IMG/VR virus record: IMGVR_UViG_2872698443_000001
DNA length: 18,271 nt
Reading direction: 5' to 3' (one strand)
DNA from: a virus
Taxonomy: Duplodnaviria > Heunggongvirae > Uroviricota > Caudoviricetes
Position 1 is the stretch's first letter; each line of letters opens with the position of its first letter. Positions 908 to 17,989 of the stretch are shown here, piece after piece. Below the pieces are notes generated by a model. It was given only the letters and a program-made list of their open reading frames with translations, did no database searches and was not told the origin of the DNA. Position numbers and translations under genes: made by a program.

Positions 908-985
908 ATAAAAAAGGCGCTTCCCCATGCCGAGTAGCGCCTTTTTAATCAAGCATTTAGCTAACCTGAATTAGTTCATGCCGTA
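908..985. repeat. Left copy of ~78-bp imperfect direct repeat (att-type junction) carrying a fis-terminator-like hairpin and a diverged fis 3'-end remnant
   Basis: 908-947 matches 17912-17951 at 39/40 positions (AAAAAAGGCGC-N-TCCCCATGCCGAGTAGCGCCTTTTTA); 948-985 matches 17952-17989 at 28/38, including a perfect GTTCATGCCGTA block that is the reverse complement of the fis C-terminal codons. Confidence 0.8.
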
Positions 986-1114
986 CTGTCATATTAGCTG
1001 TTTTCATGCTTTTAGATGATTTTAATATTCATATAATAATCAATGTGTTGTATAAATTCATGCCTGTATATTGTTCCAGTGTTTTTCTTTGTTTATGCTA
1101 TTATGCAAGCAATT

Positions 1115-1137
1115 CTGTATAAACATTTGTATAAACA
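1115..1137. promoter_or_regulatory. Tandem TGTATAAACA decamers (x2), candidate integrase arm-type binding sites or int promoter element
   Basis: CTGTATAAACATTTGTATAAACA lies just upstream of int; an almost identical 23-bp block in the same orientation occurs at 17886-17908 at the opposite end of the element. Confidence 0.45.
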
Positions 1138-1155
1138 CTTTGGGCTGGGTGGTCT

Positions 1156-2376
1156 ATGGCTGGCGAACTTAACAAACTGAGCGACAGGAAGTTAAAGGGA
1201 TTACATGGTATCCCGGCCAGTAAGATTGAGTTCTATGCTGATGGTGCCGGGCTGAGCGCCAAGGTAACTAAAGCTGGTGGTATTAGCTGGGTGTTTACTT
1301 ACCGACTCGACGGGCAGAAGCTGCATCGTCTTACTCTGGGACGATACCCGGATATGAGCCTCAAAGAGGCCCGTTCTTCGCGTGATAAATGCCGCCAATG
1401 GCTGGCCTCAGGTAAAGATCCAAAGCACCAGTTGGCGCTGACCACTCAGGAAACGCTTAAACCGGTCACTGTTAAGGAAGCTATAGAATACTGGATACGC
1501 GAATATGCAGAAGAGAACCGCGCGAATGTTGAACGGCACAAAGCGGAGCTGCGAAAACACATTTATCCTTATATAGGGAAAATGGCGCTCGCTGACTGTG
1601 AAACACGATACTGGCTTGACTGCTTTGACAGGATGAAAAAGAAAACTCCAGTCGCCGCAGGTTATGTGTTCCAGATGTGCAAACAAGCCCTGAAATTCTG
1701 CCGGGTTCGTCGCTATGCTGTGAGTACCGCGCTTGAAGATTTAACAATTCCAGATGTCGGTAAAAAACAGGCAAAAAAAGACCGGGTATTAAACGATAAA
1801 GAGGCTGGCGATTTATGGGCTGCCATTTCCTCTGGCACTTGCTTCATGCCTTACTACACCAGGCTACTGACAATCTTAATGGTGTTTGGGTGCCGAACGC
1901 AGGAGGCCAGGCTATCAGAGTGGAGTGAATGGGATATGGATGCCTGGGTCTGGACAGTTCCCAAAGAGCACAGCAAGGGCGGCGAGAAGATTGTAAGACC
2001 TGTGCCGGATGCCATGCGCAAATTCATTGAAATACTGCATGATGAAACGAAACGATCCGGCCTTTTGCTTGGGTCGGTTAAAGGCAGTGAAGCGGTAAGT
2101 CAGTGGGGCCGCGGTGTTTATAAAAAGCTGGGGCATTCTGAACCATGGACACTGCACGATCTAAGACGAACTTTAGCAACGCATATGAATAATATGGGTA
2201 TAGCACCACACGTTGTCGAACAGTTGTTGGGGCACTCAATGCCGGGAGTTATGGCGATTTATAACCGTAGTCTGTACTTGCCTGAGAAATTGGATGCGTT
2301 GAATAAATGGTATGACAGACTTGATATTTTATCAGGTGGATTCACTAACATTGTTTTGTTGAATAGGGCTGAATAA
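1156..2376 (+). CDS. Tyrosine-type site-specific integrase (P4-like, 406 aa)
   Basis: Long ORF adjacent to the att repeat; C-terminal catalytic signatures (HDLRRT, GHSMPGVMAIYNRS with the presumptive catalytic Tyr); N-terminal region resembles the arm-binding domain of P4-family integrases. Confidence 0.9.
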   Translation: MAGELNKLSDRKLKGLHGIPASKIEFYADGAGLSAKVTKAGGISWVFTYRLDGQKLHRLTLGRYPDMSLKEARSSRDKCRQWLASGKDPKHQLALTTQETLKPVTVKEAIEYWIREYAEENRANVERHKAELRKHIYPYIGKMALADCETRYWLDCFDRMKKKTPVAAGYVFQMCKQALKFCRVRRYAVSTALEDLTIPDVGKKQAKKDRVLNDKEAGDLWAAISSGTCFMPYYTRLLTILMVFGCRTQEARLSEWSEWDMDAWVWTVPKEHSKGGEKIVRPVPDAMRKFIEILHDETKRSGLLLGSVKGSEAVSQWGRGVYKKLGHSEPWTLHDLRRTLATHMNNMGIAPHVVEQLLGHSMPGVMAIYNRSLYLPEKLDALNKWYDRLDILSGGFTNIVLLNRAE

Positions 2377-2923
2377 TGACTAGTTTTCTAAAATTGGGTA
2401 TTTTCGAGCGAGAAGCCAAAGCCCCGGAACTCAATATTAAACAACTTGCACTACTTATGTGTGGGGTAGATCCGACAGTTAAAACTGCTGATATCCCTGA
2501 GGCGAAAGTTGAAGCTTACAATATATACTATCGACAACTGAGTAGATGGTTATCAGCATCTAAATTATTTCGAGGTGGAAACTCAACAGCCTATCCCGCA
2601 GACTATATGTTTGCTCTGGCATATCCTCTTATTGATGAAGATATTACACCACAACCCATAAAGGACAGATGCCTTGCGGCGGTGGCTATAATTGCTAATC
2701 AAAACAAAGGAAAAGAGCATCTTTATGCTATGGGAGGGGATGAGCTTTTACAGGTCGGAATTGCATTGAAAAGCAGCAAACGCGGCTTGCATCGTAAAGA
2801 AGATGAAAAGGAATATAATGATAAATTAATGGGGATGCTGGTCAAGCTTATAGCACATAAGATAGGCCGGTAATGCTGCCAACTTACTGATTTAGTGTAT
2901 GATGGTGTTTTTGAGGTGCTCCA

Positions 2924-3199
2924 GTGGCTTCTGTTTCTATCAGCTGTCCCTCCTGTTCAGCTACTGACGGGGTGGTGCGTAACGGCAAAAGCACCGCCGG
3001 ACATCAGCGCTATCTCTGCTCTCACTGCCGTAAAACATGGCAACTGCAGTTCACTTACACCGCTTCTCAACCCGGTACGCACCAGAAAATCATTGATATG
3101 GCCATGAATGGCGTTGGATGCCGGGCAACTGCCCGCATTATGGGCGTTGGCCTCAACACGATTTTACGTCACTTAAAAAACTCAGGCCGCAGTCGGTAA
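2924..3199 (+). CDS. insA: IS1 InsA
   Basis: 91-aa [26 protein letters not shown]... recognised as IS1 InsA with its zinc-finger and HTH region. Confidence 0.95.
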
Positions 3200-3621
3200 C
3201 CTCGCGCATACAGCCGGGCAGTGACGTCATCGTCTGCGCGGAAATGGACGAACAGTGGGGCTATGTCGGGGCTAAATCGCGCCAGCGCTGGCTGTTTTAC
3301 GCGTATGACAGGCTCCGGAAGACGGTTGTTGCGCACGTATTCGGTGAACGCACTATGGCGACGCTGGGGCGTCTTATGAGCCTGCTGTCACCCTTTGACG
3401 TGGTGATATGGATGACGGATGGCTGGCCGCTGTATGAATTCCGCCTGAAGGGAAAGCTGCACGTAATCAGCAAGCGATATACGCAGCGAATTGAGCGGCA
3501 TAACCTGAATCTGAGGCAGCACCTGGCACGGCTGGGACGGAAGTCGCTGTCGTTCTCAAAATCGGTGGAGCTGCATGACAAAGTCATCGGGCATTATCTG
3601 AACATAAAACACTATCAATAA
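3118..3621 (+). CDS. insB: IS1 InsB (expressed as InsAB' transposase by -1 frameshift)
   Basis: 167-aa ORF recognised as IS1 InsB; overlaps insA in the -1 frame; frameshift site TTAAAAAAC at about 3173-3181. Confidence 0.9.
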
Positions 3622-3939
3622 GTTGGAGTCATTACCAGATAGGCCATTCGTTTGGCACCTCTAAAAAACCAAGCATCTCGGCTATTTTAAACGAACTATA
3701 TAAATTAGCTGATGAGGAAGGTATATCTAAAACTGGATTATCCAAATCAGCAATATATGATAAAATTCGCAAGGCATTAAATTCGATTTATTATACGGAA
3801 TGAATATTATTTTGCAGTGTTAGTGGGTATTATTTATATTTCATGTGAAAATACTAATTAATTATATTTGTTGGAGCTTTTGGCGATTCTATGATCGCCA
3901 AGGAGATTCAATTGTTATATTTGATGTTTATTACAGTTA

Positions 3940-4020
3940 CATTCAACAGCATTCAACAGCATTCAACGACACGTAATGACACGTAACGGCACCCGACAGC
4001 ACCTAACAATACCTAGCTCC
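3940..4020. repeat. Array of ~10-bp phased direct repeats (CATTCAACAG x3, CACGTAAYGR x2, CACCYRACA-like x2)
   Basis: Read directly: successive near-identical decamers with exact 10-bp spacing in the AT-rich intergenic region upstream of alpA. Confidence 0.6.
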
Positions 4021-4060
4021 ATCCACGGTCTCTACTAGGTCATTACTTGCTAACTTTTTC

Positions 4061-4120
4061 CATCTTTGTTCATGGTTATTCATCACTGTTCATCAGCGTT
4101 CATCATTGTTCATCTTTGTT
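4061..4120. repeat. Six phased CATC-NN-TGTT decamers (iteron-like, TGTTCAT core); candidate crr-like or regulatory protein-binding array
   Basis: CATCTTTGTT CATGGTTATT CATCACTGTT CATCAGCGTT CATCATTGTT CATCTTTGTT at exact 10-bp periodicity; the TGTTCAT core resembles the TGTTCACC iterons at 8571-8799, about 4.5 kb away. Confidence 0.5.
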
Positions 4121-4373
4121 ATGAACAATCCAAGGCGAATCAAATCGTTAGAGAACGGTGATCTTCGGCGAGTTATTGAAATTCATGATTTTTTCTCTCG
4201 CGACAGCCGTTGAAATTACTGTGGAAATTGTTTTCAACAGGGGAGCGTTATCTTGATGGAATTTCTATCTTTCAATGGAATTGCGTGTTCTTTTAAAGGA
4301 TTCCAGAATCAATGGAAATGCTGGTCGTTTATCCACTAATCTCTTCGCATAACATTGAAACAGTGGAGGCAGC

Positions 4374-4658
4374 ATGCAAAATATAACCTTTACCCCGCCA
4401 AATCCTGAACAACGCCGCACCCTTTTAGAAGAGTACGGCTTTAAGTTTGATCGCCGAATCCGTGAAGATGAATGCAGCGAGATCACCAGTCTTTCCCGTT
4501 CCAGCCGCTGGAAGATGGAACAGCAGGGGCGCTTCCCTCCGCGCTGTCACTTTGGCCGCAATAGCTGTGCTTGGCTTCTTTCGGATGTGCTCTGGTGGGT
4601 TCGTAATCCGCCAGCAGTAGAGAACGTCAATAACCCATACAGCCGTAAATCTGCTTAA
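4374..4658 (+). CDS. alpA: AlpA-family phage transcriptional regulator (94 aa)
   Basis: Translation contains the AlpA-type HTH region (ITSLSRSSRWKMEQQGRFPPRCHFGRNSCAWLLSDVLWW); GGAGG Shine-Dalgarno 5 nt upstream of the ATG. Confidence 0.85.
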   Translation: MQNITFTPPNPEQRRTLLEEYGFKFDRRIREDECSEITSLSRSSRWKMEQQGRFPPRCHFGRNSCAWLLSDVLWWVRNPPAVENVNNPYSRKSA

Positions 4659-4678: not shown

Positions 4679-5371
4679 ATGAAAAAGATTAATGCCCTCC
4701 ACGGGCAGGGATTCGCTCACCCTGTAGCCAGCCAGCACGATATTTCAGCGAACCGTAAACAGGTTATTGCCGGTGACTGGTCGCCCATTAATCGTGGTGA
4801 ATTTACGCTTGCCGATCTGGGGTTGCGCCACAACGGTAACGGGCTGGTGTGGCTGCGTTCCGGCGTGTCCGTGCATGAGGCAGACCATGATGCAGGGATA
4901 AGCGGCAAGGACAAGACCAAAGGAAGGGTTAACGGCCTTCCTTTTGAATTTGTCGGCCAGTGGCAGGAATACCCGACTAAACGCAGCTTTGCCGTTTCAG
5001 TATCTACGGAACTACGGCGCCAGTATTACCCGGACGATGCCGCATTCAGTAAGGCAATGCGTGAGGCTGGTTATGTTCCGGTGCGCACTCGCAAACTGAC
5101 CGGAAAGGATGCTCGTTTTTGGCTGTACCGTGTAACGGGCAATGATAAGGGGGTTGTCGCAGCAGAATCCGCGCCACACAAGGCTTGCGCGCCAGTTGTC
5201 CAGACCATATCTAAGCCTCATCCGTGGTTTAAGCGTGTGGCACTCGATGGTAAATGGCAGTACGTCTACGCAGATCACATCCGCTTTCTGACTAAAAAGC
5301 GTCATCGCGTCGATGGTGTTCGGGTTCAGGGGTATACCGCTGGCGGGCTGAAAGTGGAGGCTATTGTATGA
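4679..5371 (+). CDS. Hypothetical protein (230 aa)
   Basis: Long ORF co-directional with alpA; its stop overlaps the next ORF start (ATGA). No family recognised. Confidence 0.6.
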   Translation: MKKINALHGQGFAHPVASQHDISANRKQVIAGDWSPINRGEFTLADLGLRHNGNGLVWLRSGVSVHEADHDAGISGKDKTKGRVNGLPFEFVGQWQEYPTKRSFAVSVSTELRRQYYPDDAAFSKAMREAGYVPVRTRKLTGKDARFWLYRVTGNDKGVVAAESAPHKACAPVVQTISKPHPWFKRVALDGKWQYVYADHIRFLTKKRHRVDGVRVQGYTAGGLKVEAIV

Positions 5372-5723
5372 CAGGCAAAACAAAGGCGGCCATGCCGGGC
5401 CGCCTGAGTCTCAACGCTTTACTGAAACATCGCCAGATTACCAGGCTTGCCGCTGGTGGTCAAACCTTGAGCCAACGAAATCCGTACGCACAAATTAACC
5501 GCGTACGTTTAATGTACGGAGATCGAGACAAAGGCGAACAGTATTCGGGTTCATGGCAAAACAACGTTAAACGTGGTTTAGAGGCTCCGACGAAAAACGT
5601 AGAGAGCTGCGAAGATAACCAACCCTCTTTAAGAGGGGAGCCTCTGCACAACTCATTAATAGTTGCGCAAAACAGACCCTTTTTAAGAGGGGCAGTCCAC
5701 AGCATTACGGGGAGTAACCCTGT

Positions 5724-5897
5724 TCAGCCTTTTGGCTCGATGCCGCGCTTATCAAGTTCACGGCGCAAAAGGCGTTTTATCCATCCCGACTTATTATCGT
5801 CACCGTCTTCTTTCATCGCTAAAGCGAGCCGCTCTGACAGTTCTTTATCGAGTCTGAGCTGCACAACATGGCGCTCTTTATTTTCGCTTGTTGACAT
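5724..5897 (-). CDS. Ribbon-helix-helix (CopG/Arc-like) small DNA-binding protein, 58 aa, antisense to the surrounding operon
   Basis: MSTSENKERHVVQLRLDKELSERLALAMKEDGDDNKSGWIKRLLRRELDKRGIEPKG shows a beta-strand then two helices typical of RHH proteins; AGGAG Shine-Dalgarno 6 nt upstream of the ATG (reverse complement of 5895-5908). Start chosen at an internal Met of the 95-aa track ORF. Confidence 0.6.
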   Translation of the reverse strand: MSTSENKERHVVQLRLDKELSERLALAMKEDGDDNKSGWIKRLLRRELDKRGIEPKG

Positions 5898-5940
5898 TGT
5901 CAACTCCTGTGGTCTAGTCTGTAGTGGAGTTGACAATGTA
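5894..5940. promoter_or_regulatory. Perfect 14-bp inverted repeat (ACATTGTCAACTCC / GGAGTTGACAATGT) with 18-bp spacer overlapping the RHH gene start; candidate operator
   Basis: Arms at 5894-5907 and 5926-5939 are exact reverse complements; each arm contains a TTGACA hexamer and an SD-ATG arrangement. Confidence 0.5.
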
Positions 5941-6037
5941 CTACATTGCATGACTTTTAGTAAAGCAAAGCCCGGCAGTGGTGGAACACTAACCGGGCCT
6001 CTAACCACCACCGTTAGCGAAAGTAACGAGGCAGCTA

Positions 6038-6228
6038 TGAAAGATCATATCACACACCCGCAAGGGCGGAAGTCCTACATCTGGCGTTTTCTTGCACTGA
6101 GCGCCATCGGTCGCAACGTCATTCACATCACAGCTAACACTGAGCGCGAAGCCCGTGAGCAATCACCGGCTGGCTGCGTGATGGTATTCGCTGGCCGTCT
6201 ACCAGTTCAGGAGGTTCGCTATGCGTGA
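6038..6228 (+). CDS. Small hypothetical protein (63 aa), possible true 3' portion of the 286-aa track ORF
   Basis: Internal ATG at 6038 preceded by GAGG; its stop overlaps the start of the next ORF (ATG 6221, TGA 6226-6228), consistent with translational coupling. Weak evidence. Confidence 0.3.
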
Positions 6229-6415
6229 GCCAATCTGTCTGGAGCAGGCCGAATATAAATCAGCGCTGGCTTCATCACTTTACGAAACCATCCTGGAAAA
6301 AGCCTCTGCTGAATGTTCAGAAACGCTGCTGAATCTGATTTCTATTGCGTGTGATTTTAATCAGGAAATTCACCGGGCATTAATCGCCGAGCTGCACATG
6401 GGAGAGACAAAGTGA
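6221..6415 (+). CDS. Small hypothetical phage protein (64 aa)
   Basis: ORF in a chain of overlapping small genes immediately upstream of the replication gene. Confidence 0.5.
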   Translation: MREPICLEQAEYKSALASSLYETILEKASAECSETLLNLISIACDFNQEIHRALIAELHMGETK

Positions 6416-6627
6416 GACAGGTTCCTTTTGAAGTCCTGATGCACGCTGAAAATGCCCTTTCAGAAAGTGAGTGCGCAATGTCTGTGCTAAGCATGTGGAT
6501 TGACAGCATTCCCGACGGTGAAGAACACCGTGAGGAAGCGTGCCGTGTCGGAGCAATTATGTCTCTGCTGCACAAATCTATCGGCGAGCTGGTGAAGGCG
6601 CGGGAGGCTTACAGTGCGAAATCCTGA
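6412..6627 (+). CDS. Small hypothetical phage protein (71 aa, GTG start)
   Basis: GTG start preceded by GGAGAG; overlaps the previous stop, indicating translational coupling. Confidence 0.5.
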   Translation: MRQVPFEVLMHAENALSESECAMSVLSMWIDSIPDGEEHREEACRVGAIMSLLHKSIGELVKAREAYSAKS

Positions 6628-6805
6628 AATCAACGATAGCTGGAAGGATAAGCGCGGCGAACTGGTCACGGTGAAAGATAACGCATTTAACCGGGTAACG
6701 TTTGTGCGTGATGGTTACGATTTTCCGTGCATCTTTCCGCTGGAAAGGTTCGTTAAAGAGTTCACTTTCGTTAGCTGGGGGCTGAAAGATGAAAAACGCG
6801 CCTAA
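6614..6805 (+). CDS. Small hypothetical phage protein (63 aa, GTG start)
   Basis: GTG start preceded by GGGAGG; overlaps the start of the replication gene. The pattern resembles small proteins I recall next to P4-family replication genes, but that is from memory and uncertain. Confidence 0.5.
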   Translation: MRNPEINDSWKDKRGELVTVKDNAFNRVTFVRDGYDFPCIFPLERFVKEFTFVSWGLKDEKRA

Positions 6806-8540
6806 TGTGAAAACCCTCCCGCGCGACAAAATGGAGGAGGCCATCATCTTTGCTGGAACGGGAGCATGGAAAGCCGCTCAGGATTACCAGAAAGGGAAGG
6901 GCGAGCATGGAGACGATGTTCCGCCTGTGGTTCTGGATCACACTCAACTGGCGGAATTGCCACACCTGCGCATTGTTGATAAAGGCCGTCGATTTGCCCG
7001 TGTCTGTCAGGCCGGGCTTATCGAGCAAAACCAAATCAGCATGATTGCAAATAAGCTGTGTGAGGCTGGCGTTACCAATGCTGAGTTTATCAACGAAAAA
7101 GGCGAGAAAGAGGACTGGACGCCATTGATGAAACGTCTGGAAGACGAGCCACTTATGGTGACTACGAGGGGAAGTGCTACGCCTGCGCTTAACCAGATGG
7201 GAGCCAGCCAGCGCGGGGAAGTTCTGCTTGCTCATTACGATGGCAATCTGGCGATCCATGCTGATTCCGACACGGTTCATCATTACAACGGCGTGGTGTG
7301 GGTTCCGCTTTCGGATAAAGAGCTGCAGCGAGAAATGGCGCAGATTTTTATTGATTCCGAAGTCGCCTATTCGCAGAACGCGATTAAATCCGCTGTCGAT
7401 ACAATGAAGCTGGGCCTCCCGGTAATGGGTAACACAGCCCGTAACCTGATTGGTTTCAGCAACGGGGTTTTTGATACCCGGTTAGGCCAATTTCGACCGC
7501 ATGATAAAAAGGACTGGCTTATCGTTGCGAGCGAATTGCCATTCAGCGAACCAGCAGAAGGTGAAACTCTGGCAACCCATGCGCCTAACTTCTGGAAATG
7601 GCTCCGCCGCTCTGTGGCGGATAATGACCGAAAAGCAGACCGCGTACTGTCTGCGCTGTTTATGGTGCTGGCGAACCGGTACGACTGGCAGCTGTTTCTT
7701 GAGGTAACGGGGCCGGGCGGAAGTGGTAAAAGTGTTATGGCTGAGATCTGCACGATGCTGGCGGGCAAGGCCAACACCGTATCGGCGAGCATGGCGGCGC
7801 TGGAGAACCCAAGGGAAAGGGCGCTGGTAGTGGGCTATTCGCTGATTATCATGCCGGATATGACCCGGTACGCTGGCGACGGCGCAGGGATTAAAGCTAT
7901 CACTGGCGGGGATAAGGTAGCCATTGACCCTAAACACAAAGCGCCATATTCAACCCGTATACCTGCGGTGGTGCTGGCCGTCAATAACAATGCCATGTCG
8001 TTCAGCGACAGAAGCGGGGGGATTTCCAGACGGCGGGTGATTTTCAACTTCTCCGAAGTGGTACCGGAAAACGAACGCGATCCTATGCTGGCCGAGAAGA
8101 TTGAAGGTGAGCTGGCTGTAATCATTCGCCACCTGCTCACTCGCTTTTCCAGGCAGGACGAAGCCAAACAGCTTTTGCATGAGCAGCAAAAATCAGAAGA
8201 AGCGCTGGCCATTAAACGTGAAGGGGATTCACTGGTGGACTTTTGCGGCTACCTGATGGCTTCGGTGGTTTGTGATGGAATGCTGATTGGTAATGCCGAG
8301 ATCGTGCCATTCAGCCCGCGCCGTTATCTGTATCACGCTTATCTGGCTTACATGCGGGCCAATGGTCTTAGCAAGCCTGTATCGTTAATGCGGTTCGGTA
8401 CGGATATGCCAGGCGCAATGGCTGAATATGGCAAGGAGTACCAGAAGCGCAAAACTAAACATGGCATAAGATCGAACGTCACCCTGCATGATGATTCAGA
8501 AGACTGGATGCCAATGTGTACCGATACAACAAAAGAATAA
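6789..8540 (+). CDS. P4-alpha-like replication protein with SF3 helicase domain (583 aa); no obvious primase domain
   Basis: Walker A GPGGSGKS in a D5/P4-primase-C-terminal-type helicase context; followed immediately by an array of TGTTCACC iterons, the recognition sequence of P4 alpha. Confidence 0.85.
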   Translation: MKNAPNVKTLPRDKMEEAIIFAGTGAWKAAQDYQKGKGEHGDDVPPVVLDHTQLAELPHLRIVDKGRRFARVCQAGLIEQNQISMIANKLCEAGVTNAEFINEKGEKEDWTPLMKRLEDEPLMVTTRGSATPALNQMGASQRGEVLLAHYDGNLAIHADSDTVHHYNGVVWVPLSDKELQREMAQIFIDSEVAYSQNAIKSAVDTMKLGLPVMGNTARNLIGFSNGVFDTRLGQFRPHDKKDWLIVASELPFSEPAEGETLATHAPNFWKWLRRSVADNDRKADRVLSALFMVLANRYDWQLFLEVTGPGGSGKSVMAEICTMLAGKANTVSASMAALENPRERALVVGYSLIIMPDMTRYAGDGAGIKAITGGDKVAIDPKHKAPYSTRIPAVVLAVNNNAMSFSDRSGGISRRRVIFNFSEVVPENERDPMLAEKIEGELAVIIRHLLTRFSRQDEAKQLLHEQQKSEEALAIKREGDSLVDFCGYLMASVVCDGMLIGNAEIVPFSPRRYLYHAYLAYMRANGLSKPVSLMRFGTDMPGAMAEYGKEYQKRKTKHGIRSNVTLHDDSEDWMPMCTDTTKE

Positions 8541-8570
8541 AGGCGGGGAAAATTAAAAGTAATGGGATAA

Positions 8571-8799: not shown

Positions 8800-8837
8800 C
8801 TTAAACGCATATTTTTAAATTTTACAGGAGGGGCTGT

Positions 8838-9098: not shown

Positions 9099-9104
9099 TC
9101 AAGT

Positions 9105-9125: not shown

Positions 9126-9136
9126 TAATATGAGAT

Positions 9137-9658: not shown

Positions 9659-9659
9659 G

Positions 9660-10694: not shown

Positions 10695-10708
10695 TTATTT
10701 TCCTTTTT

Positions 10709-10736
10709 ATTATCACTACCGAGAGGCTGTGGTTAA
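10709..10736 (-). promoter_or_regulatory. Candidate sigma70 promoter for the cargo operon (extended -10 GTGATAAT, -35 TTAACC, 16-nt spacer)
   Basis: Reverse complement of 10709-10716 is GTGATAAT and of 10731-10736 is TTAACC; positioned just upstream of the 344-aa gene. Motif-level only. Confidence 0.3.
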
Positions 10737-10845
10737 ATAATCTAACAAAAAAATTCTTTTGTAAATTATTTGTTCTCATGTTTATTCGTGATTGCCTCTG
10801 TCTATGTACGGGGTTTTCTTTATATTTTTCATGTATATCTTTAAG

Positions 10846-10933
10846 AGTGGCACTCAGACGTGAGCCGCCACTGGCCGTTAAGTCAAGCTGTAGCGAGTAC
10901 AGCCTGCGAGAGGCAGAAAAAGATTTAACGGCC
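10846..10933. other. GC-rich nested inverted-repeat element in an otherwise AT-rich divergent intergenic region
   Basis: Outer 9-bp stem GGCCGTTAA (10873-10881) / TTAACGGCC (10925-10933) enclosing hairpins GCTGTA-GCGAG-TACAGC and CTGC-GAGAG-GCAG; a further GTGGC/GCCAC stem at 10846-10870. Confidence 0.35.
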
Positions 10934-10988
10934 TCCCCTCCAAGCGCTGGTTTCACGTCTCAACGTTAATTGTTACGGAAACCACTCC

Positions 10989-12155
10989 ATGAAGAAACTA
11001 CTCGAATTACGCCAGCAGAAAGCCGCACTCAAAACACAGATGCGTTCCATGCTGGACAAAGCCGACACCGAAAAGCGCAGCCTGAACGAAGAAGAGGGCC
11101 AAAAGTTCGATGAACTCCGCGCCCAGGCTGATGCGCTTGAAGTTGAAATCACCCGTCTAGAAGCCGTCGCCGACGATCAGCGCAATCTGCCTGGTACTTC
11201 CGTTGAAGGTGAGCCAGTAAGCAACGACGAGCTGCGCCACTACATCATGACAGGTGATACCCGTTCTCTCTCCACGCTGGTGCAGGCTGATGGCGGCTAT
11301 ACCGTTATCCATGAGCTGGACAAAGAGATTATGCGCCAGTTGCAGGATGATAGCGTGATGCGCTCCATCGCAACGGTGAAGACCACCAAAACCAACGAAT
11401 ACCAGAAGCTGGTATCTGTGGGCGGCACTACCGTTAATCGTGGTACCGAAGGTGAGGCACGTACCGAAACCAGTACGCCGAAGATGGAGCGCGTTGATAT
11501 CAAACTCAACCCGATCTACGCCTACCCGAAAACCACTCAGGAGATTCTCGACTTCTCCGAGGTGGATATTTTGGGCTGGCTGTCTTCTGAAATTGCCGAC
11601 ACCTTCACCGCGACCGAAGAAAGCGACTTTGTGAACGGCGACGGTGATAAAAAATCCAAAGGCTTCCTGTCTTACCCTCGCGCGGCCACTGCCGACAAAA
11701 CCCGTCCGTTCGGTACGCTGGAGAAGATGGAAGCGGCTGACGTTTCCTCTGATGGCCTGATCGACCTGCTGTATAAGCTGAAAGCCAAATACCGCAAAAA
11801 CGCCGTATGGGTGATGAACTCCAACACCGCAGCCAAACTGCAAAAGCTGAAAAACGGCAACGGGGATTACATCTGGCGCGATCGTCTGGTTGCCGGTTCT
11901 CCCGATACGCTGCTGGGCCGTCCTGTTCAGTATCTGGAAACCATGCCGGATGCGGAGGCAGGTAAAGCATTCCTCGCGGTAGGCGACTTCAAGCGCGGCT
12001 ATTTCATCGTGGATCACACCACTGGCGTGCGTACCCGCCCTGACAACATCACCGAACCGGGTTTCTACAAGGTGCATACCGATAAATACCTGGGCGGCGG
12101 CGTGGTGGACTCCAACGCCATCAAGGTGCTTGAGCTTTCAGGCTCCGGTTCCTGA
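10989..12155 (+). CDS. HK97-fold major capsid protein (388 aa) with N-terminal coiled-coil scaffolding (delta) region
   Basis: N-terminal charged coiled-coil segment followed by a capsid-like body; size and composition typical of HK97-family major capsid proteins; followed by an intrinsic terminator. Confidence 0.9.
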   Translation: MKKLLELRQQKAALKTQMRSMLDKADTEKRSLNEEEGQKFDELRAQADALEVEITRLEAVADDQRNLPGTSVEGEPVSNDELRHYIMTGDTRSLSTLVQADGGYTVIHELDKEIMRQLQDDSVMRSIATVKTTKTNEYQKLVSVGGTTVNRGTEGEARTETSTPKMERVDIKLNPIYAYPKTTQEILDFSEVDILGWLSSEIADTFTATEESDFVNGDGDKKSKGFLSYPRAATADKTRPFGTLEKMEAADVSSDGLIDLLYKLKAKYRKNAVWVMNSNTAAKLQKLKNGNGDYIWRDRLVAGSPDTLLGRPVQYLETMPDAEAGKAFLAVGDFKRGYFIVDHTTGVRTRPDNITEPGFYKVHTDKYLGGGVVDSNAIKVLELSGSGS

Positions 12156-12165
12156 TTTGACGTTT

Positions 12166-12187
12166 AAGGGGCTTCGGCCCCTTTTTG
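12166..12187 (+). terminator. Rho-independent terminator after the capsid gene
   Basis: AGGGGC-TTCG-GCCCCT hairpin followed by TTTTT. Confidence 0.7.
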
Positions 12188-12206
12188 CCCTCTGTGGAGT
12201 CCAGTA

Positions 12207-12767
12207 ATGAAAACAATCGATTTTGAAATCCGTACCTCCGAAGTGAGCGCCAGCAACAAAAAGCTGGTGGGCTATGCCGTACGCTGGAACAGTCTCTCTG
12301 AAATTATCTGGGACGAGTTCCGCGAGCAGTTTGCGCCGGGAGCGTTTAAAGACAGCCTGGCATCCGGTAGCGATGTGCGTGCGCTGTACGAGCATAACTA
12401 TACCCAGCTGCTGGGCCGCACTAAATCCGGCACGCTGGTGCTGTCAGAAGATGATACCGGGCTGCGCTTCGAGCTGACCCCGCCGAATACCCAGCTTGGC
12501 AACGATGTGCTGGAGCTGGTGGAGCGTGGGGATATCTCCGGCATGAGCTTTGGTTTCCGGGCGCTGAAAGAGGCGTGGGATATCGGCCAGTCTCCATACC
12601 TGCGCACTGTTACCGCAGCCGAACTGCGGGAGATTACCGTTACCTCTATGCCTGCTTATCCTGAGTCTGGAGTGGAAATCGCGCACCGTTCGCTTTTCTC
12701 CCAACATCCTGAACTGTGCCGCGCTGGCGATAACCGTCGCCGCTGGGCTGAATTAGCGGGGCTCTGA
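12207..12767 (+). CDS. HK97-family prohead (head maturation) protease (186 aa)
   Basis: Size, position within the head module and sequence pattern consistent with HK97-type prohead proteases; GGAG RBS upstream. Confidence 0.8.
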   Translation: MKTIDFEIRTSEVSASNKKLVGYAVRWNSLSEIIWDEFREQFAPGAFKDSLASGSDVRALYEHNYTQLLGRTKSGTLVLSEDDTGLRFELTPPNTQLGNDVLELVERGDISGMSFGFRALKEAWDIGQSPYLRTVTAAELREITVTSMPAYPESGVEIAHRSLFSQHPELCRAGDNRRRWAELAGL

Positions 12768-12768: not shown

Positions 12769-14010
12769 ATGTGGAATATCTGGCCGTTTGGCCGTAAGTC
12801 TGAACCCTCTGAGCAGCGCAGCATGACCATTGATGAATTTCTGGCGATGGCAGGGATTCCAAATACCGGATCAGGCGAGTATGTGTCTGCGGGTACTGCG
12901 GAATCTCTGCCGGCGGTCATGAACGCCGTATCAGTTATCAGTGAGGCGGTGGCAACAATGCCCTGCTACCTCTACCGCGTGCGTAATGATAACGGGCGTG
13001 AGGCGCGAGAATGGCTGAGCAATCATCCGGTGGATTTTCTGCTGAACGAGCAGCCGAACGACTGCCAGACACCTTACCAGTTTAAACGCACGATGATGCG
13101 CCATTGTCTGCTGAATGGTAACGCCTATGCGGTGATCCAGTGGGGCCGCGACGGCCAGCCGCAATCCCTGCATCCGTATGCGCCGGGGGCGGTTGTTCCT
13201 GAGCGTATCGGCCAGCATAAGTACAAATACACCGTTACTGAACCGTTTACCGGGGCAGTGCGCACCTACTTGCAGGAAGAGATTCTGCACCTGCGTTACT
13301 CGACCGATGATGGTTTTCTGGGGCGCTCGCCGATCACCATCTGCCGTGAGGCGCTGGGGTTAGGTCTGGCCCAGCAGCGCCACGGTGCCAGCATTATGAA
13401 AGATGGCATGATGGCGGCGGGCGTAGTCACGACTGCTGAATGGCTCGATAGTGTGAAGGGTAAGCAGGCGCTGGACGCGCTTGAGCGCTACAAAGGTGCC
13501 AGAAATGCCGGTAAAACGCCGATCCTTGAAGGTGGCATGGACTATAAGCAGCTTGGCATGAGCAATCAGGATGCTGAGTGGTTGGCCTCCCGGCGCTTCA
13601 CCATCGAAGATATTGCCCGCATGTTTAACGTTTCTCCCATCTTCTTGCAGGAATACAGCAACAGCACCTACAGCAATTTTAGTGAGGCGAGCCGCGCCTT
13701 TCTTACCATGACAATGCGCCCGTGGCTGGCGAACTTTGAGCAGCAGATTAAATCCGCGTTGCTGGTGGCATCGCCTGTACCCGGAATCCGTTATCAGGTG
13801 GAGTTCGACTCTGCCGATCTTCTTCGAGCCACTCCAACCGAACGCTACGCAACTTATGAGCGCGGTATCAAGAACGGGATCATGAACCCGAACGAAGCCC
13901 GCGAACGCGAAGGGATGCCGCCGCGTGAAGGTGGCGACGAATACAGCCAGGCATGGAAGCAGGAAGTGAAGGTCAGTACCGATTCTGAGACTAAGGAGGA
14001 TGCGTTATGA
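12769..14010 (+). CDS. Phage portal protein, HK97 family (413 aa)
   Basis: Size, position in the head module and conserved central region typical of HK97-family portal proteins; its stop overlaps the start of the next gene. Confidence 0.85.
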   Translation: MWNIWPFGRKSEPSEQRSMTIDEFLAMAGIPNTGSGEYVSAGTAESLPAVMNAVSVISEAVATMPCYLYRVRNDNGREAREWLSNHPVDFLLNEQPNDCQTPYQFKRTMMRHCLLNGNAYAVIQWGRDGQPQSLHPYAPGAVVPERIGQHKYKYTVTEPFTGAVRTYLQEEILHLRYSTDDGFLGRSPITICREALGLGLAQQRHGASIMKDGMMAAGVVTTAEWLDSVKGKQALDALERYKGARNAGKTPILEGGMDYKQLGMSNQDAEWLASRRFTIEDIARMFNVSPIFLQEYSNSTYSNFSEASRAFLTMTMRPWLANFEQQIKSALLVASPVPGIRYQVEFDSADLLRATPTERYATYERGIKNGIMNPNEAREREGMPPREGGDEYSQAWKQEVKVSTDSETKEDAL

Positions 14011-14342
14011 GGCCGGGAGGATTAAGGCAACGCGTCACGATTCAGAATTTTACTACCAGCCGAACCCCTTCTGGTGGCGTCATTCAGGAATGGTACGACG
14101 TTGCGACAGTCTGGGCAGAAGTGAAGGGGATCAGTGGCCGTGAGCTGATTGCTGCGGGTGCTGAAATGTCCGAGGTTACATTTCGTATGTGGATACGTTA
14201 CCGCTCTGACGTAACCAGCGCCAGCCGGATCATCTGGAAACAGAAAGGACATGATGCAAAAGCATTTGATATTCAGTCGGCAATTCCTGATGAAAAGGCT
14301 ACCAGGCTGGAGTTGCTTTGTAAGGGAGGGCTTAAGCCGTGA
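14007..14342 (+). CDS. Head closure / head-tail joining protein (111 aa)
   Basis: Small protein translationally coupled to the portal gene; sequence pattern (RVTIQ..., ATVWAEV..., ELLCKGG) resembles phage head-tail joining proteins. Confidence 0.7.
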   Translation: MRPGGLRQRVTIQNFTTSRTPSGGVIQEWYDVATVWAEVKGISGRELIAAGAEMSEVTFRMWIRYRSDVTSASRIIWKQKGHDAKAFDIQSAIPDEKATRLELLCKGGLKP

Positions 14343-14638
14343 GTGAACTAATTGGGCTTGATGAGGCAAAACTTCACTGCCGCATCGATAACGATGATTC
14401 CTATGAAGATGCAATGATTCAGGCATACATCGAAGCGTCACTGGAAGTCTGCCAGAAGCATATCGGTAAACGGTTCGGTGCTGGCCTGGAATTCACTCCT
14501 GCCATCAAGATCGGATGCCTTATGTACGTTTCCCAACTGTACGAATACCGCACGATGATTAGTGATGTGGAGGCGAAAGAGATCCCCCTTGCTATCTCTG
14601 CATTGTGGTCTGTGTATCGCGATGTGGGGGTGTACTGA
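14339..14638 (+). CDS. gp6-like head-tail connector protein (99 aa, GTG start)
   Basis: GTG start after AAGGGAGGG; N-terminal LDEAKLHCRIDNDD...DAMIQAYIEAS pattern typical of gp6-like connector proteins. Confidence 0.7.
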   Translation: MSELIGLDEAKLHCRIDNDDSYEDAMIQAYIEASLEVCQKHIGKRFGAGLEFTPAIKIGCLMYVSQLYEYRTMISDVEAKEIPLAISALWSVYRDVGVY

Positions 14639-15081
14639 TGCCGTGGCAACCAATGCGCCGGTGCACTGAGCCGGGATGCAATAAGCGGGTGAAGTCTGGT
14701 AAGTGCGATGAGCACAAGCGGGAAGCCTGGCGGGCGGAAGATGCCAGACGCGGCCACCGTCGCGCCCGTGGTTACTCAGCATCATGGGAGAAGTACCGCG
14801 CTCAGTATCTGAAACGTCAGCCGCTATGTGTCGAGTGCCAGAAGCTGGGCCTCTACGTTCCTGCAAAGATTGTCGATCACATCATCCCTATCGACGGCGG
14901 TGATGATGTTCTGTTCTGGCCTGAGTGGAATCACCAGCCGTTATGCCAGATGCATCATAACCAGAAGACCACGCAGCAAGACCCCATCACCAAAGCGAAC
15001 CGTAAGGCAGGGCTGTACCGAGAGCAGGAAGAGCGTGCAGCCCATCGCAATGACTGGATGTATGAGGCCAGCAATGAATGA
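14638..15081 (+). CDS. HNH endonuclease (packaging-associated), 147 aa
   Basis: Cys-rich HNH region (CNKRV...C...HK...C.EC...DHIIPI...H...N...C..HH); start taken at the ATG overlapping the upstream stop (TGATG); located directly upstream of terS and terL. Confidence 0.85.
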   Translation: MPWQPMRRCTEPGCNKRVKSGKCDEHKREAWRAEDARRGHRRARGYSASWEKYRAQYLKRQPLCVECQKLGLYVPAKIVDHIIPIDGGDDVLFWPEWNHQPLCQMHHNQKTTQQDPITKANRKAGLYREQEERAAHRNDWMYEASNE

Positions 15082-15226
15082 GAAAGACGTGGTGAATCTG
15101 TACCGATCATTGATGCGCTGCCGTGATGGCTTCATGCAGGGGAGAAGCAGGCGCAATGAGCGCCAGCCTGTGCAGCGTATGAGCGAGCGTGAACGGGAGT
15201 TGCGGGAATGCTTCCGCAACCGCTGA
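15074..15226 (+). CDS. Possible small basic protein (50 aa) in the HNH-terS intergenic region
   Basis: ATG overlapping the HNH stop; Arg-rich translation MNEKDVVNLYRSLMRCRDGF...; no RBS assessed. Low confidence. Confidence 0.25.
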   Translation: MNEKDVVNLYRSLMRCRDGFMQGRSRRNERQPVQRMSERERELRECFRNR

Positions 15227-15356
15227 CAGGCCGCATGGACGGGGTGGGGGAGGTTTTCAGGACAAACCTCAAGGTGCCAGGCACCGCCCGCCCCCTCAAA
15301 TTTTTACGCACGGTGATTTTTTTGAAAATAAAACGCGATGGAAACGAGAAATTTTT

Positions 15357-15713
15357 ATGGCAAGACCACCAAAACCGCCAGCTTACCTTGATGAGTTAGC
15401 CGCGCAGCAGTGGAAAGCGAAAGCGAAGCAACTGGCCGAGCGTGGCGATCTGACACCCGCCGACTGGAACAACCTTGAGCTTTTTTGCGTCAACTATTCG
15501 ATGTACCGCAAAGCAGTGGAAGACCTTGCCAGCCGTGGGTTCAGCATTGTTAACAGCCAGGGGGGCGAGAGCCGAAATCCTGCACTGAGTGCAAAGGCCG
15601 ATGCTGAAAAAATCATGATTAAAATGTCGTCGCTGCTGGGCTTTGATCCGGTAAGCCGCCGCCGTAACCCGGTAGAAACGGAAGAGGAGGACGAGCTTGA
15701 CCGTCTGGAATGA
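15357..15713 (+). CDS. Terminase small subunit, P27-like (118 aa)
   Basis: From internal Met: MARPPKPPAYLDELAAQQWKAKAKQLAERGDLTPADWNNLELFCVNYSMYRKA... matches the P27-family TerS pattern. The 56 codons upstream in the track ORF are low-complexity and probably not translated. Confidence 0.8.
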   Translation: MARPPKPPAYLDELAAQQWKAKAKQLAERGDLTPADWNNLELFCVNYSMYRKAVEDLASRGFSIVNSQGGESRNPALSAKADAEKIMIKMSSLLGFDPVSRRRNPVETEEEDELDRLE

Positions 15714-17358
15714 GTACGCAAATGCGATAAAAACGGGCGAAATTCCGGCCTGTAAGCGCGTAAAACAGGCCGTGGAAAGGTACTTTTCAGACCTGAATGA
15801 CCCCCGATATGAGTTCGATACGGCGACCGTAGAGCGGTTTATTGCGTTCTCGCGGCTCTGTCCTCACGTCAAAGGCCCGCTTCGGGGCCAGCCAATCGAT
15901 CTGGAACCGTGGCAGCAGTTCGCCTTTGCTAACCTGCTGGGCTTTAAAGTCAGAGAGACAGGCCGCCGTAAGTACAGCAGCGCCTTTATTGAGGTGCCGC
16001 GCAAGAATGCCAAATCCACCGTGGCCGCCATGCTGGCTAACTGGTTTCTGGTAATGGAGAAGGGCCAGCAGGATATCTATACGGCGGCGGTGAGCCGGGA
16101 TCAGGCCCGAATCGTGTTCGACGATGCCCGCCAGATGTGCCTGTTGTCAAAACCGCTGAAAAAGCGCGTAAATATTCAGGCGCATAAAGTCATTTTCCCG
16201 AAGAGCAACAGCCTGCTAAAGCCGCTGGCGGCGAAAGCGTCCACCATTGAAGGGACTAACCCCAGCCTAGCGATTGTCGATGAGTACCACCTTCACCCGG
16301 ATAACGGCGTTTATTCCGCCCTTGAGCTGGGTATGGGCGCACGTCCTGAGGCTATTTTGTTCGCCATAACGACCGCCGGGAGTAACGTTGTCTCAGCCTG
16401 TAAACAGCATTACGACTACTGTTGTCAGATTCTGGCCGGGGAAGAGAGCAACGATTCGCTGTTTGTCCTGATCTACGAGCTGGACGACGAAAGCGAGGTT
16501 GAGCAGCCTGAAATGTGGATCAAGGCCAACCCTAACCTGCATGTGTCCGTTGACGCGGCGAAGCTGGAATCCACCATCCAAAAAGCGCGGGGTATACCGT
16601 CGCAATGGGTGGAGATGCTGACCAAGCGTTTCAATATCTGGTGTCAGGGTTCTACACCGTGGATGGGTGCCGGGGCATGGGATGCCTGTGCACTCGATTA
16701 TGCCGAAGAAGATCTGGTCGGGATGGAGTGTTACGCCGGATTTGACCTGTCCTCAACCAGCGATATTACCAGCGTGAGTTACGCTTTCCCGTTTGAACGC
16801 GAGATCAGGCTTCTTACTCGGCACTATCTGCCCGAAGCGCAGCTACTTAACGTTGCTAACAAAAACCGCGCCATCTATCGCCAGTGGGTAAAAGCGGGCT
16901 GGATACGAACCACCCCCGGCGACTGTATCGACTATGACCGCATCCGTGACGATATCCTGCGCGATGCTGAAACATTCAATATCCGGCTGGTGGGCTTTGA
17001 TACGTGGAACGCCACTCACTTGCGAACCCAGTTACAGGGGGCCGGCCTCGATGTGGAGCCGTTCCCGCAAACCTATCTGAAATTCAGTCCGGTAGCGAAA
17101 TCTTTTGAGGTTTTTGTTAACCGCAAGGTGGTGCGCCATCGTGGCGATCCGGTTCTGGCTTGGGCGATTGGTAACGTGGTGATGGAGTCCGACGCCAACG
17201 CCAATATCAAACCCAACAAAAAGAAATCCTCCAACAAGATAGACCCGGCGGTTTCTGCACTCATGGCGTTCGGCACATTCCAGGCAGAACACGAAGATTT
17301 TGCTTTCGATATGAGCGACAGTCACAAAGAGCGACTGGCTTTATTTAATGGGATTTGA
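15697..17358 (+). CDS. Terminase large subunit (553 aa, TTG start)
   Basis: GAGGAGG RBS 6 nt upstream of the TTG start; overlaps the terS stop; size and ATPase/nuclease architecture typical of TerL. Confidence 0.9.
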   Translation: MTVWNEYANAIKTGEIPACKRVKQAVERYFSDLNDPRYEFDTATVERFIAFSRLCPHVKGPLRGQPIDLEPWQQFAFANLLGFKVRETGRRKYSSAFIEVPRKNAKSTVAAMLANWFLVMEKGQQDIYTAAVSRDQARIVFDDARQMCLLSKPLKKRVNIQAHKVIFPKSNSLLKPLAAKASTIEGTNPSLAIVDEYHLHPDNGVYSALELGMGARPEAILFAITTAGSNVVSACKQHYDYCCQILAGEESNDSLFVLIYELDDESEVEQPEMWIKANPNLHVSVDAAKLESTIQKARGIPSQWVEMLTKRFNIWCQGSTPWMGAGAWDACALDYAEEDLVGMECYAGFDLSSTSDITSVSYAFPFEREIRLLTRHYLPEAQLLNVANKNRAIYRQWVKAGWIRTTPGDCIDYDRIRDDILRDAETFNIRLVGFDTWNATHLRTQLQGAGLDVEPFPQTYLKFSPVAKSFEVFVNRKVVRHRGDPVLAWAIGNVVMESDANANIKPNKKKSSNKIDPAVSALMAFGTFQAEHEDFAFDMSDSHKERLALFNGI

Positions 17359-17508
17359 GCATAAAGCGTAAAGGAAGAATTATCTTGAGGTTATCAGGAA
17401 TATAAAATTGCTCTAGATCACTACATTGCTGTCGTGGAATAGGAAGAGTCTGTTTTGTTGTTTATAAATGTATTGCAGGGCTTTTCCTGTTCAAACTTCT
17501 GGTGAAAT

Positions 17509-17817
17509 ATGACTGATAAATGGGCTGATTACCTTATTTCTAAAGTCCGATATAACGATAAACACACTCACATTACCCATGTGTATGTGCATGTCGATAA
17601 TGGCGATACTGTTGGAGAAGGGACATCAGAAACACGGCAGTGGGTAGTGAATAAAATCGATAGCGGCTATACCTTTTACACCATTTTCAAAGGTGATGAC
17701 GGTAAGTGGAAGAAAGGTCAAAAAGTGGTTAAGGACCGTGTCAACGGTACTGATTACATTACTACTAGACCTAATGGTACATCCAAGGATAACTTAGAAA
17801 ACCTTCCTGAGTACTAA
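17509..17817 (+). CDS. DUF3892-like protein (102 aa), terminal cargo gene
   Basis: HITHVYVHV... and ...TTRPNGTSKDNLENLPEY motifs match my recollection of DUF3892 proteins; AT-rich; sits between terL and the right att repeat. Confidence 0.65.
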   Translation: MTDKWADYLISKVRYNDKHTHITHVYVHVDNGDTVGEGTSETRQWVVNKIDSGYTFYTIFKGDDGKWKKGQKVVKDRVNGTDYITTRPNGTSKDNLENLPEY

Positions 17818-17842
17818 ACACTTTGGTTACTAAAGGCATAAA

Positions 17843-17870
17843 GCATCAGAATTGTTCTGGTGCTTTTTTG
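17843..17870 (+). terminator. Rho-independent terminator after the DUF3892-like gene
   Basis: GCATCAGAA-TTG-TTCTGGTGC hairpin (one G-U pair) followed by TTTTTTGTTTGTT. Confidence 0.65.
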
Positions 17871-17885
17871 TTTGTTCAGCCAAAG

Positions 17886-17908
17886 CTGTATAAACATCTG
17901 TATAAACA
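17886..17908. promoter_or_regulatory. Second tandem TGTATAAACA pair, candidate arm-type integrase binding sites on the opposite arm
   Basis: CTGTATAAACATCTGTATAAACA matches 1115-1137 at 22/23 positions in the same orientation, 4 bp from the right att repeat. Confidence 0.45.
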
Positions 17909-17911
17909 ATA

Positions 17912-17989
17912 ATAAAAAAGGCGCATCCCCATGCCGAGTAGCGCCTTTTTATTCAATAACATAGCTGAAATGTATCAGTTCATGCCGTA
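17912..17989. repeat. Right copy of ~78-bp imperfect direct repeat; includes the fis terminator and the last five fis codons
   Basis: See 908-985; this copy is contiguous with the intact fis gene (stop at 17975-17977). Confidence 0.8.

Follow-up and report, generated by a model that had tools for sequence, protein, structure and literature searches.

An IS1-carrying copy of the capsid-forming island EcCIGN02175 identified by sequence at the 3' end of fis in Escherichia coli DETEC-P61

The DNA analyzed here, referred to as the window, is a stretch of 18,271 nt filed as IMG/VR virus record IMGVR_UViG_2872698443_000001. It corresponds to E. coli chromosomal DNA, with fis on the opposite strand, and is 100% identical to positions 462837-481107 of the strain DETEC-P61 genome (NZ_CP116152.1). 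The 17.0-kb island in the window is almost certainly the capsid-forming phage-inducible chromosomal island (cfPICI; PICI without the capsid-forming qualifier) EcCIGN02175, in a copy that carries IS1 and is integrated at the 3' end of fis. In Table S1 of He et al. (2025, bioRxiv 10.1101/2025.02.11.637232), the range CP116152:463,811-480,825 of DETEC-P61 is listed as a 17.015 kb element with 99.94% identity to EcCIGN02175, and this range translates into positions 975-17989 of the window (17,015 bp). The match to EcCIGN02175 (strain GN02175, CP041550) was made through that table and the copies listed in it. Against the window, three strains entered in Table S1 as 100% copies (GN06667, GN05476 and CU37RT-2) reach 99.8% and OW1E2 reaches 99.7%, in all cases apart from a 777-bp insertion. 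No evidence contradicting the assignment was met in the analysis.

Since the same copy, from the same E. coli genome, is already listed as a copy of EcCIGN02175, the finding is correct but not new. The element has been catalogued down to this very copy, and its attachment site, cross-genus spread and tail-borrowing mechanism have all been published. The original prediction recognized a capsid-forming PICI from the raw sequence alone, and this reading is right, as attested both by the gene content described below and by the presence of the genome and its coordinates in the published EcCIGN02175 catalogue. Its suggestion that the integration site and the module mix were worth documenting, on the other hand, does not hold, because the fis site is documented for 2,642-3,565 PICIs (PMC10111431) and the element itself in He et al. 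2025. The discovery value is small, and what the present work adds is the exact junctions, the replacement of the fis stop codon and terminator, the IS1 size class, the limits of the homology to the P4 alpha protein, a likely position for the cos site and the PDC-M18 gene pair.

Membership in the cfPICI class was assessed with the 11 core components of the SatelliteFinder model (PMC10085698), judged here by Pfam, NCBIfam and PHROG families, and all 11 components are present. The left arm is that of a PICI, with an integrase, an AlpA-type regulator and a gene of the primase/replicase class (Pfam), and the island also carries its own head set, together with its own HNH endonuclease and small and large terminases (TerS and TerL; Pfam, PHROG). 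These results bear out the integrase, AlpA, helicase and complete head and packaging set that had been proposed from the letters. They also bear out the proposed lack of tail, baseplate, fibre, holin and endolysin genes: Pfam, NCBIfam and PHROGs detect none of these families in any annotated or long open reading frame (ORF), and the island is therefore free of the tail and holin components that the model forbids. No tail or lysis genes lie in the 6 kb to either side in the source genome, which hold acrEF/acrS/yhdU on one side and dusB/prmA/panF on the other, so that the refuting case named by the original prediction, such genes just outside the window, did not arise. The size of the island (17.0 kb, or 16.2 kb without IS1) and its location at fis are congruent with the range of cfPICIs (about 10-17 kb, at a site without prophages).

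The limits of the island were set by alignment with the empty fis-yhdJ site of E. coli K-12 and with the attachment site (attP) of a related island, KpCIDSM30104, taken from the virion-derived record LR881103. A flanking repeat of 78 nt and 86% identity relates positions 908-985 to 17912-17989. The left copy equals K-12 at 100% through a 13-bp block, AGTTCATGCCGTA, and then turns into island DNA, while in the right copy island DNA comes first and gives way to fis past these same 13 bp; this block is the sole stretch common to the K-12 attachment site (attB), both junctions and the KpCIDSM30104 attP. Because the switch between K-12 and island DNA falls at the same 13 bp, the crossover can be placed at 973-985 on the left, where the reverse complement TACGGCATGAACT corresponds to the last fis codons, and at 17977-17989 on the right. 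The island thus spans 973/986-17989, between intact yhdJ and fis. The comparison with the empty K-12 site establishes that the flanking repeats noticed earlier are true insertion junctions. The start at 908 proposed with them must nonetheless be moved: the repeat is real, but the element begins at the 973-985 block, and 908-972 is the native fis terminator plus intergenic DNA, identical at 100% to the empty K-12 site and hence outside the island. At the other end, 17912-17976 is an element-borne copy of the fis terminator, now serving fis, that is 86% identical to the native copy and contiguous with island DNA in the KpCIDSM30104 attP.

Both flanking genes are intact, as had been stated: fis (17975-18271, minus strand) encodes 98 residues, and yhdJ (1-885, minus strand), which codes for an adenine DNA methyltransferase, is whole in the ORF list and in the RefSeq annotation of the identical record. 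Likewise, the 3' end of fis proves to be the integration site, with a 13-bp core that covers the last fis codons, and the expectation of an empty site elsewhere is borne out by the complete E. coli genomes, 5,309 of 5,426 of which have an uninterrupted fis-yhdJ region, the remainder (about 2%) being occupied. PICI attachment at the 3' end of fis has been published, with the consensus TACGGCATGAACTAA (PMC10111431), which is found in this island; TACGGCATGAACT is the identity block given there for PICIs that integrate at fis, and excision at fis has been shown experimentally for a Klebsiella fis PICI (cited in PMC10111431). The identity block of the two junctions (attL and attR), TACGGCATGAAC(T), is also present at the fis stop codon, with fis on one side and the usual downstream gene on the other. 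The motif TGTATAAACA occurs in four exact copies, two at each island end, as doublets at 1116-1137 (P' arm) and 17887-17908 (P arm), both on the plus strand, the latter being found also in the KpCIDSM30104 attP; when up to one mismatch is allowed, there are 7 sites against 1.07 expected. Since the integrase carries an Arm-DNA-bind_3 domain, these doublets are probably arm-type integrase binding sites.

As a side effect of integration, fis has TGA in place of TAA as its stop codon, and downstream of it lies the island's 86% copy of the terminator instead of the native one. Fis is a global regulator, and an effect of the swapped terminator on the 3' end or the stability of fis mRNA is conceivable.

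Several caveats apply to the assignment of the island to EcCIGN02175 and to the biology that comes with it. The IS1 element truncates a conserved ORF of 216 residues and enlarges the small-head genome by 4.8%. The replication protein, here termed Pri-Rep, has no recognizable primase domain. Operon structure, moreover, had to be taken from gene order and from the literature, because scans of the window for sigma-70 promoters and terminators gave counts no higher than those in shuffled sequence (the fis terminator hairpins were themselves missed because their loops exceed the scanner limit). Finally, the identity of the element, its junctions, gene set, iterons and homology to P4 alpha are established by sequence, and the experimental biology comes from the IS1-free prototype and its relatives.

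The first of these points underlies the alternative that fares best. IS1 (2869-3636, plus strand; 768 bp, insA/insB), named an IS1A-family transposase by PGAP, is bordered on either side by the 9 bp of its target duplication (AGATAGGCC; 2860-2868 and 3637-3645), and splits the 216-residue ORF (2376-3804, plus strand; phrog_30524, 4e-90) into 2376-2868 and 3646-3804. Rebuilt without IS1, this ORF is identical to its KpCIDSM30104 counterpart (positions 6343-6993 of LR881103). The 777 bp of IS1 and duplication are missing from four near-identical E. coli island copies and account for the two size classes of 17,015 and 16,238 bp, given that 16,238 + 768 + 9 = 17,015. The original prediction, otherwise sound in gene content, was silent both on this insertion and on a low-GC (guanine plus cytosine) gene pair at 9137-10694. 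It could be argued that the DETEC-P61 copy is decaying and non-transferable, IS1 having killed a needed gene or overfilled the small head, and the fresh duplication within an ORF that lies beside int and is 100% conserved in KpCIDSM30104, together with the growth of the genome from 16.24 to 17.02 kb, speaks for this possibility. We nevertheless regard it as unlikely: the island has kept intact all of its 11 core genes, its two attachment junctions, its iterons and its putative cos site, three E. coli strains are listed with the 17.015-kb form (a count that ignores kinship), and naturally occurring relatives, K. pneumoniae TH12880 with 17.3 kb and RHBSTW-00066 with 18.05 kb, suggest that the size is probably tolerated. 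With its core parts intact and natural relatives reaching 17.3-18.05 kb, the IS1-bearing copy of EcCIGN02175 is probably still mobile.

The distribution of the element bears on a second alternative. A near-identical unit, bounded by the attachment sites, is found in 16 strains of 7 species at 97.7-100% identity. A scan of one genome per species locates the same packaging module, its capsid protein 98-99% identical, in Citrobacter, Enterobacter, Kluyvera and Intestinirhabdus, and remoter versions of it across the Enterobacterales, often beside fis. In addition, a C. freundii metagenome contig matches positions 6053-12284 of the window at 99.4%, low-GC pair included. The island might, in principle, be no satellite but a defective prophage from which deletion removed the tail and lysis genes, since its genes for heads and packaging are of the ordinary HK97 phage type and one relative was deposited as the phage vB_KppS-Ant. 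Such a deletion product, however, is hard to reconcile with the recurrence of the same unit at 97.7-100% across those 16 strains, with the presence of a PICI left arm (int, alpA, and pri-rep with its origin) or with end points beside fis that related islands share in many genera. Tail, lysis and immunity-repressor modules of a temperate prophage were found neither within the 17 kb bounded by the attachment sites nor in the 6-kb flanks. A survey that mapped 2,642 to 3,565 fis islands reported no prophage and no tail genes in any of them (0 of 3,565; PMC10111431), and the prototype EcCIGN02175 has been mobilized experimentally as a satellite, all of which makes a defective prophage very improbable. 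The deposited relative is LR881103.1 (L003 in our set; 16.5 kb), entered as 'filamentous ssDNA phage' vB_KppS-Ant; we equate it with KpCIDSM30104, the second model island of He et al., because the authors of vB_KppS-Ant noted more than 99% identity to part of the K. pneumoniae DSM 30104 genome.

The replication module of the island is related to that of satellite P4. Pri-Rep (6789-8540, plus strand) combines a superfamily 3 helicase with an origin-binding initiator (Pfam D5_N, DUF5906 and Pox_D5; tblastn), and its residues 134-579 align to residues 327-775 of P4 alpha with 51.5% identity (tblastn, E 4e-150). Its C-terminus matches PDB 1KA8 (E 2e-25), a 100-residue chain labeled 'putative P4-specific DNA primase' that we take to be the origin-binding C-terminal domain of P4 alpha. 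For residues 1-326 of alpha, presumably its primase domain, tblastn finds no counterpart anywhere in the window, and no Pfam family is detected in Pri-Rep residues 1-133 (positions 6789-7190); the protein is annotated as 'DNA primase family protein', and the island encodes no other primase. Directly downstream of Pri-Rep, at 8572-8799, lie seven exact copies of the iteron TGTTCACC, along with degenerate copies, around AT-rich DNA. All exact copies in the window fall in this field, against 0.64 expected from shuffles, none of which reached seven (0 of 200), and in P4 this octamer is annotated as the 'ori type 1 repeat', both in ori and in crr; a literature search for it returned only unrelated primer matches. 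The iteron field is hence the putative replication origin.

How far the resemblance to P4 extends was assessed by running all 13 P4 proteins against the window by tblastn (E below 0.05). Counterparts turned up for just three of them, alpha (residues 327-775) and, as weak matches, Int (26%) and Vis (31%), and no homologues of sid, psu, delta or epsilon were found in the window. The P4-alpha-like helicase and the iterons announced by the original prediction are therefore real, on the strength of the 51.5% identity and the seven exact TGTTCACC copies. Its description of a chimera between a P4-like element and a cfPICI, however, is overstated: the homology is narrow and the left arm is normal for the lineage, as KpCIDSM30104 carries the same module (Pri-Rep 98.5%) and related islands swap replication modules freely. 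The TGTTCACC-type module is present in KpCIDSM30104 and also in Pluralibacter and Pectobacterium islands, and upstream of the capsid gene in the islands that share the packaging module (L006-L013, L019 and L073 in our set) the replication modules are of at least five unrelated kinds. Each of these comes with its own iteron cluster immediately 3' of the initiator (TGTTCACC, TGCGGCAT, AGTGCGGC, GTTGGTTC or GGGATAAG), a pattern that, as judged from the compared sequences, is one of modular exchange within a known family. In this light, a P4-like satellite that needs a P2-like helper and redirects helper capsid size is refuted on gene content and retains next to no probability, for the 51% identity of Pri-Rep to alpha 327-775, the identical iteron, the Vis/AlpA-like and Icd-like genes and a cargo also found in the P4 defense hotspot are set against missing sid, psu, delta and epsilon homologues, an own capsid, portal, protease and terminase, integration at fis by an integrase only 26% identical to P4 Int, and a clean separation of the P4 and cfPICI families by SatelliteFinder (PMC10085698).

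Three adjacent arrays of 10-bp phased tandem repeats (CATTCAACAG, GACACGTAAT and GTTCATCA; Tandem Repeats Finder) lie upstream of alpA at 3940-4120 (plus strand). Their copy number varies between close relatives and they do not co-vary with the replication initiator, for which reason they are probably a regulatory region rather than an origin. A bipartite, P4-style origin was considered, with the phased GTTCATC repeats at 4061-4120 lying about 4.45 kb from the TGTTCACC cluster in a spacing that resembles P4 ori/crr, and was rejected: two islands (L008 and L013) have a P4-type rep and TGTTCACC iterons without the array, and in a third (L011) a comparable array goes with a rep and an iteron of unrelated type.

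Given an alpha-type initiator (51%), a C-terminus that matches 1KA8 and an identical TGTTCACC iteron, it is conceivable, if rather improbable, that a P4-like satellite living in the same cell may supply an alpha protein that recognizes the island origin, and vice versa, which would give rise to cross-activation or incompatibility; the lack of a primase domain would moreover make the island dependent on a host or helper primase. Such cross-talk, were it real, could be among the reasons why, as reported, P4-like satellites and cfPICIs are found together in E. coli less than expected.

The head and packaging genes form a block on the plus strand. It opens with an HK97-fold major capsid protein (10989-12155; Pfam Phage_capsid, 4e-68). 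Full-length comparison with the capsid protein of EcCIEDL933 (PDB 9GYI), which has been solved as a T=4 shell of 47.5 nm, gives 66% identity (E 7e-160); by analogy, the small heads of this island are probably T=4 as well. A prohead serine protease of the S78 type (12207-12767; Pfam, 7.5e-48) and the portal protein (12769-14010; Pfam, 6e-96) follow, and then come the head closure protein (14007-14342; Pfam Phage_HCP, 1.6e-26; phrog_25), which is the 'head-tail adaptor' of He et al. and, according to these authors, one determinant of tail fit, and a gp6-like head-tail connector (14339-14638; Pfam Phage_connect_1, NCBIfam TIGR01560). The HNH endonuclease of the packaging module (14638-15081; Pfam HNH; phrog_144, 3e-42), a 50-residue ORF (15074-15226; phrog_3173), TerS of the P27 family (15357-15713; Pfam Terminase_4, 9e-25; TIGR01558) and TerL (15697-17358; Pfam TerL_ATPase and TerL_nuclease) complete the block. 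Cohesive ends have been reported for these islands, and the non-coding stretch just upstream of terS (15240-15345, GGGGTGGGGG ... CCGCCCCCTCAAATTTTTACGCACGGTGATTTTTTTGAAAATAAAAC) is conserved across 11 islands even where identity in the adjacent genes drops to 76-82%. This same stretch lies between the two termini of the virion-derived LR881103 record, from which 69 nt are absent here. A cos site is hence likely at about 15240-15345.

In the left arm, also on the plus strand, the tyrosine integrase (1156-2376; Pfam Arm-DNA-bind_3, 5e-19, and Phage_integrase, 4e-18) precedes the interrupted 216-residue ORF, and the AlpA regulator/excisionase (4374-4658; Pfam Phage_AlpA, 5e-10; phrog_2790, 1.5e-39) lies downstream of the repeat arrays. 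AlpA is the induction switch of Gram-negative PICIs, and an alpA mutation in EcCIEDL933 abolishes both induction and transfer (bioRxiv 10.1101/2022.09.08.507074). Next come orf230 (4679-5371; 230 residues, no family match) and a variable gene of 286 residues with a C-terminal Icd-like domain (5368-6228; NCBIfam phage_ICD_like, 2e-17). PGAP annotates only a 63-residue Icd-like protein at 6037-6228. The phrog_6196 match, however, spans residues 200-283 of the longer ORF and starts some 24 residues before the PGAP start, and the ORF is open in KpCIDSM30104 too (325 residues, 52% identity), with a replaced middle segment, suggesting that the Icd-like gene probably extends beyond its annotation. 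This ORF also contains two 22-nt repeats with hairpins (5617-5638 and 5671-5692). Three small ORFs (6221-6415, 6412/6478-6627 and a DUF4222 gene at 6614-6805; 6221-6805 overall; Pfam DUF4222, 9e-20, and PHROGs) separate it from Pri-Rep.

Accessory genes occupy two variable regions, and the composition of the island is patchy, with a GC fraction of about 0.55 in the packaging genes and 0.37-0.39 in the two accessory regions. Before the packaging operon, where immune systems are expected (He et al. 2025, bioRxiv 10.1101/2025.02.11.637232), and past an 86-residue ORF (8838-9098, plus strand; phrog_1957), lie two minus-strand genes with a GC fraction of 0.39 that PADLOC identifies as PDC-M18A (9660-10694, 344 residues; 1.9e-71) and PDC-M18B (9137-9658, a membrane protein of 173 residues; 7.8e-23). 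PDC-M18 is a recurrent occupant of the P4 defense hotspot (PMC11754643), and the pair is a candidate anti-phage cargo by virtue of these matches. PDC-M18B is 29% identical to the partner with four transmembrane segments (4-TM) of the 'RexA + 4TM' system of the P4 hotspot, a system without activity on the phage panel of Rousset et al. 2022. A RexAB-like identity of the pair was considered and could not be confirmed: Pfam detects no RexA domain in PDC-M18A, even at E up to 10, and the AlphaFold single-sequence model was unusable (pLDDT, the predicted local distance difference test, of 34). The second variable region, past the packaging genes, holds a DUF3892 gene (17509-17817, plus strand; Pfam, 4e-12) followed by a terminator-like hairpin at 17840-17866. 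No tRNA genes were found in the window, nor any Rfam family at E up to 0.1 in the whole of it, including a P4-type regulatory RNA sought at 5371-6037.

A life cycle can be proposed by mapping onto this sequence the steps described in the experimental papers on EcCIEDL933, EcCIGN02175 and KpCIDSM30104. Induction, packaging into small capsids, tail-less particles, rescue by HK106 and HK022 tails, the role of adaptor and connector and the requirement for AlpA have been shown on EcCIGN02175 or relatives, and EcCIGN02175 takes the tails of both HK106 and HK022, with transfer rising by nearly four logs. The DETEC-P61 island would lie silent in the chromosome, its integrase having presumably recombined the 13-bp core AGTTCATGCCGTA that overlaps the last fis codons, and would provide fis with a replacement stop codon and terminator. 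An induced helper prophage would turn on alpA, leading to excision at the core and to expression of the island genes, whereupon the P4-alpha-like helicase/initiator would bind the TGTTCACC iterons just 3' of its own gene and replicate the circle. The capsid protein, protease and portal of the island would then build small heads, into which TerS, TerL and HNH would package unit-length island DNA from the predicted cos just upstream of terS. With the adaptor (head closure) protein and the connector completing the head, tail-less heads would be released, and these would become infective only after joining phage-made tails, the fit of which the two connector proteins would set. The two variable regions would carry along the accessory genes, that is, the PDC-M18 defense candidate and the DUF3892 gene.

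Compared with known systems, the island is closest to EcCIGN02175 and is the same element, with the same adaptor and connector alleles, as judged by their equal divergence from KpCIDSM30104; the two differ in that EcCIGN02175 measures 16,238 bp and the DETEC-P61 copy 17,015 bp, through the IS1 that splits the ORF beside int. KpCIDSM30104 shares the architecture, the attP and the TGTTCACC origin, and its products are identical (Int, AlpA and orf230, all 100%) or very similar (Pri-Rep 98.5%, capsid 97.7%, portal 97.3%, TerL 93%). It departs from the island in the adaptor (50%) and the connector (83%), values equal to those published for EcCIGN02175 against KpCIDSM30104, in the middle of the Icd-like ORF and in the lack of a PDC-M18 cargo before the capsid gene. 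In place of DUF3892, moreover, it has after TerL a gene of 765 residues (positions 2036-4333 of LR881103) that is annotated as 'tail length tape measure protein' and is probably a mis-annotated accessory gene and not a tape measure. With P4, the island shares the helicase and origin-binding region of alpha (51%), an identical TGTTCACC iteron directly 3' of the initiator, as in P4 crr, a Vis/AlpA-type regulator and a PDC-M18-type cargo that is common in the P4 hotspot. It differs in lacking sid, psu, delta, epsilon and the primase domain of alpha, in that a second iteron cluster was not found, in making its own capsid instead of resizing that of P2, and in its integrase and attachment site. The prototype cfPICI, EcCIEDL933 (Alqurainy et al., bioRxiv 10.1101/2022.09.08.507074), has the same module order and gene set (int, alpA, rep, capsid, protease, portal, two connectors, HNH, TerS and TerL) and likewise no tails, but is more distant, with reported identities to EcCIGN02175 of about 40% in the adaptor and about 61% in the connector. 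Lastly, the island resembles the fis-integrated PICIs described by the Williams laboratory (PMC10111431) in the block TACGGCATGAACTAA/TGA that runs into a terminator at both of its junctions and in having yhdJ across the island, as reported there; classical PICIs, which have no complete head module, make up most of that survey, whereas the island described here is capsid-forming.

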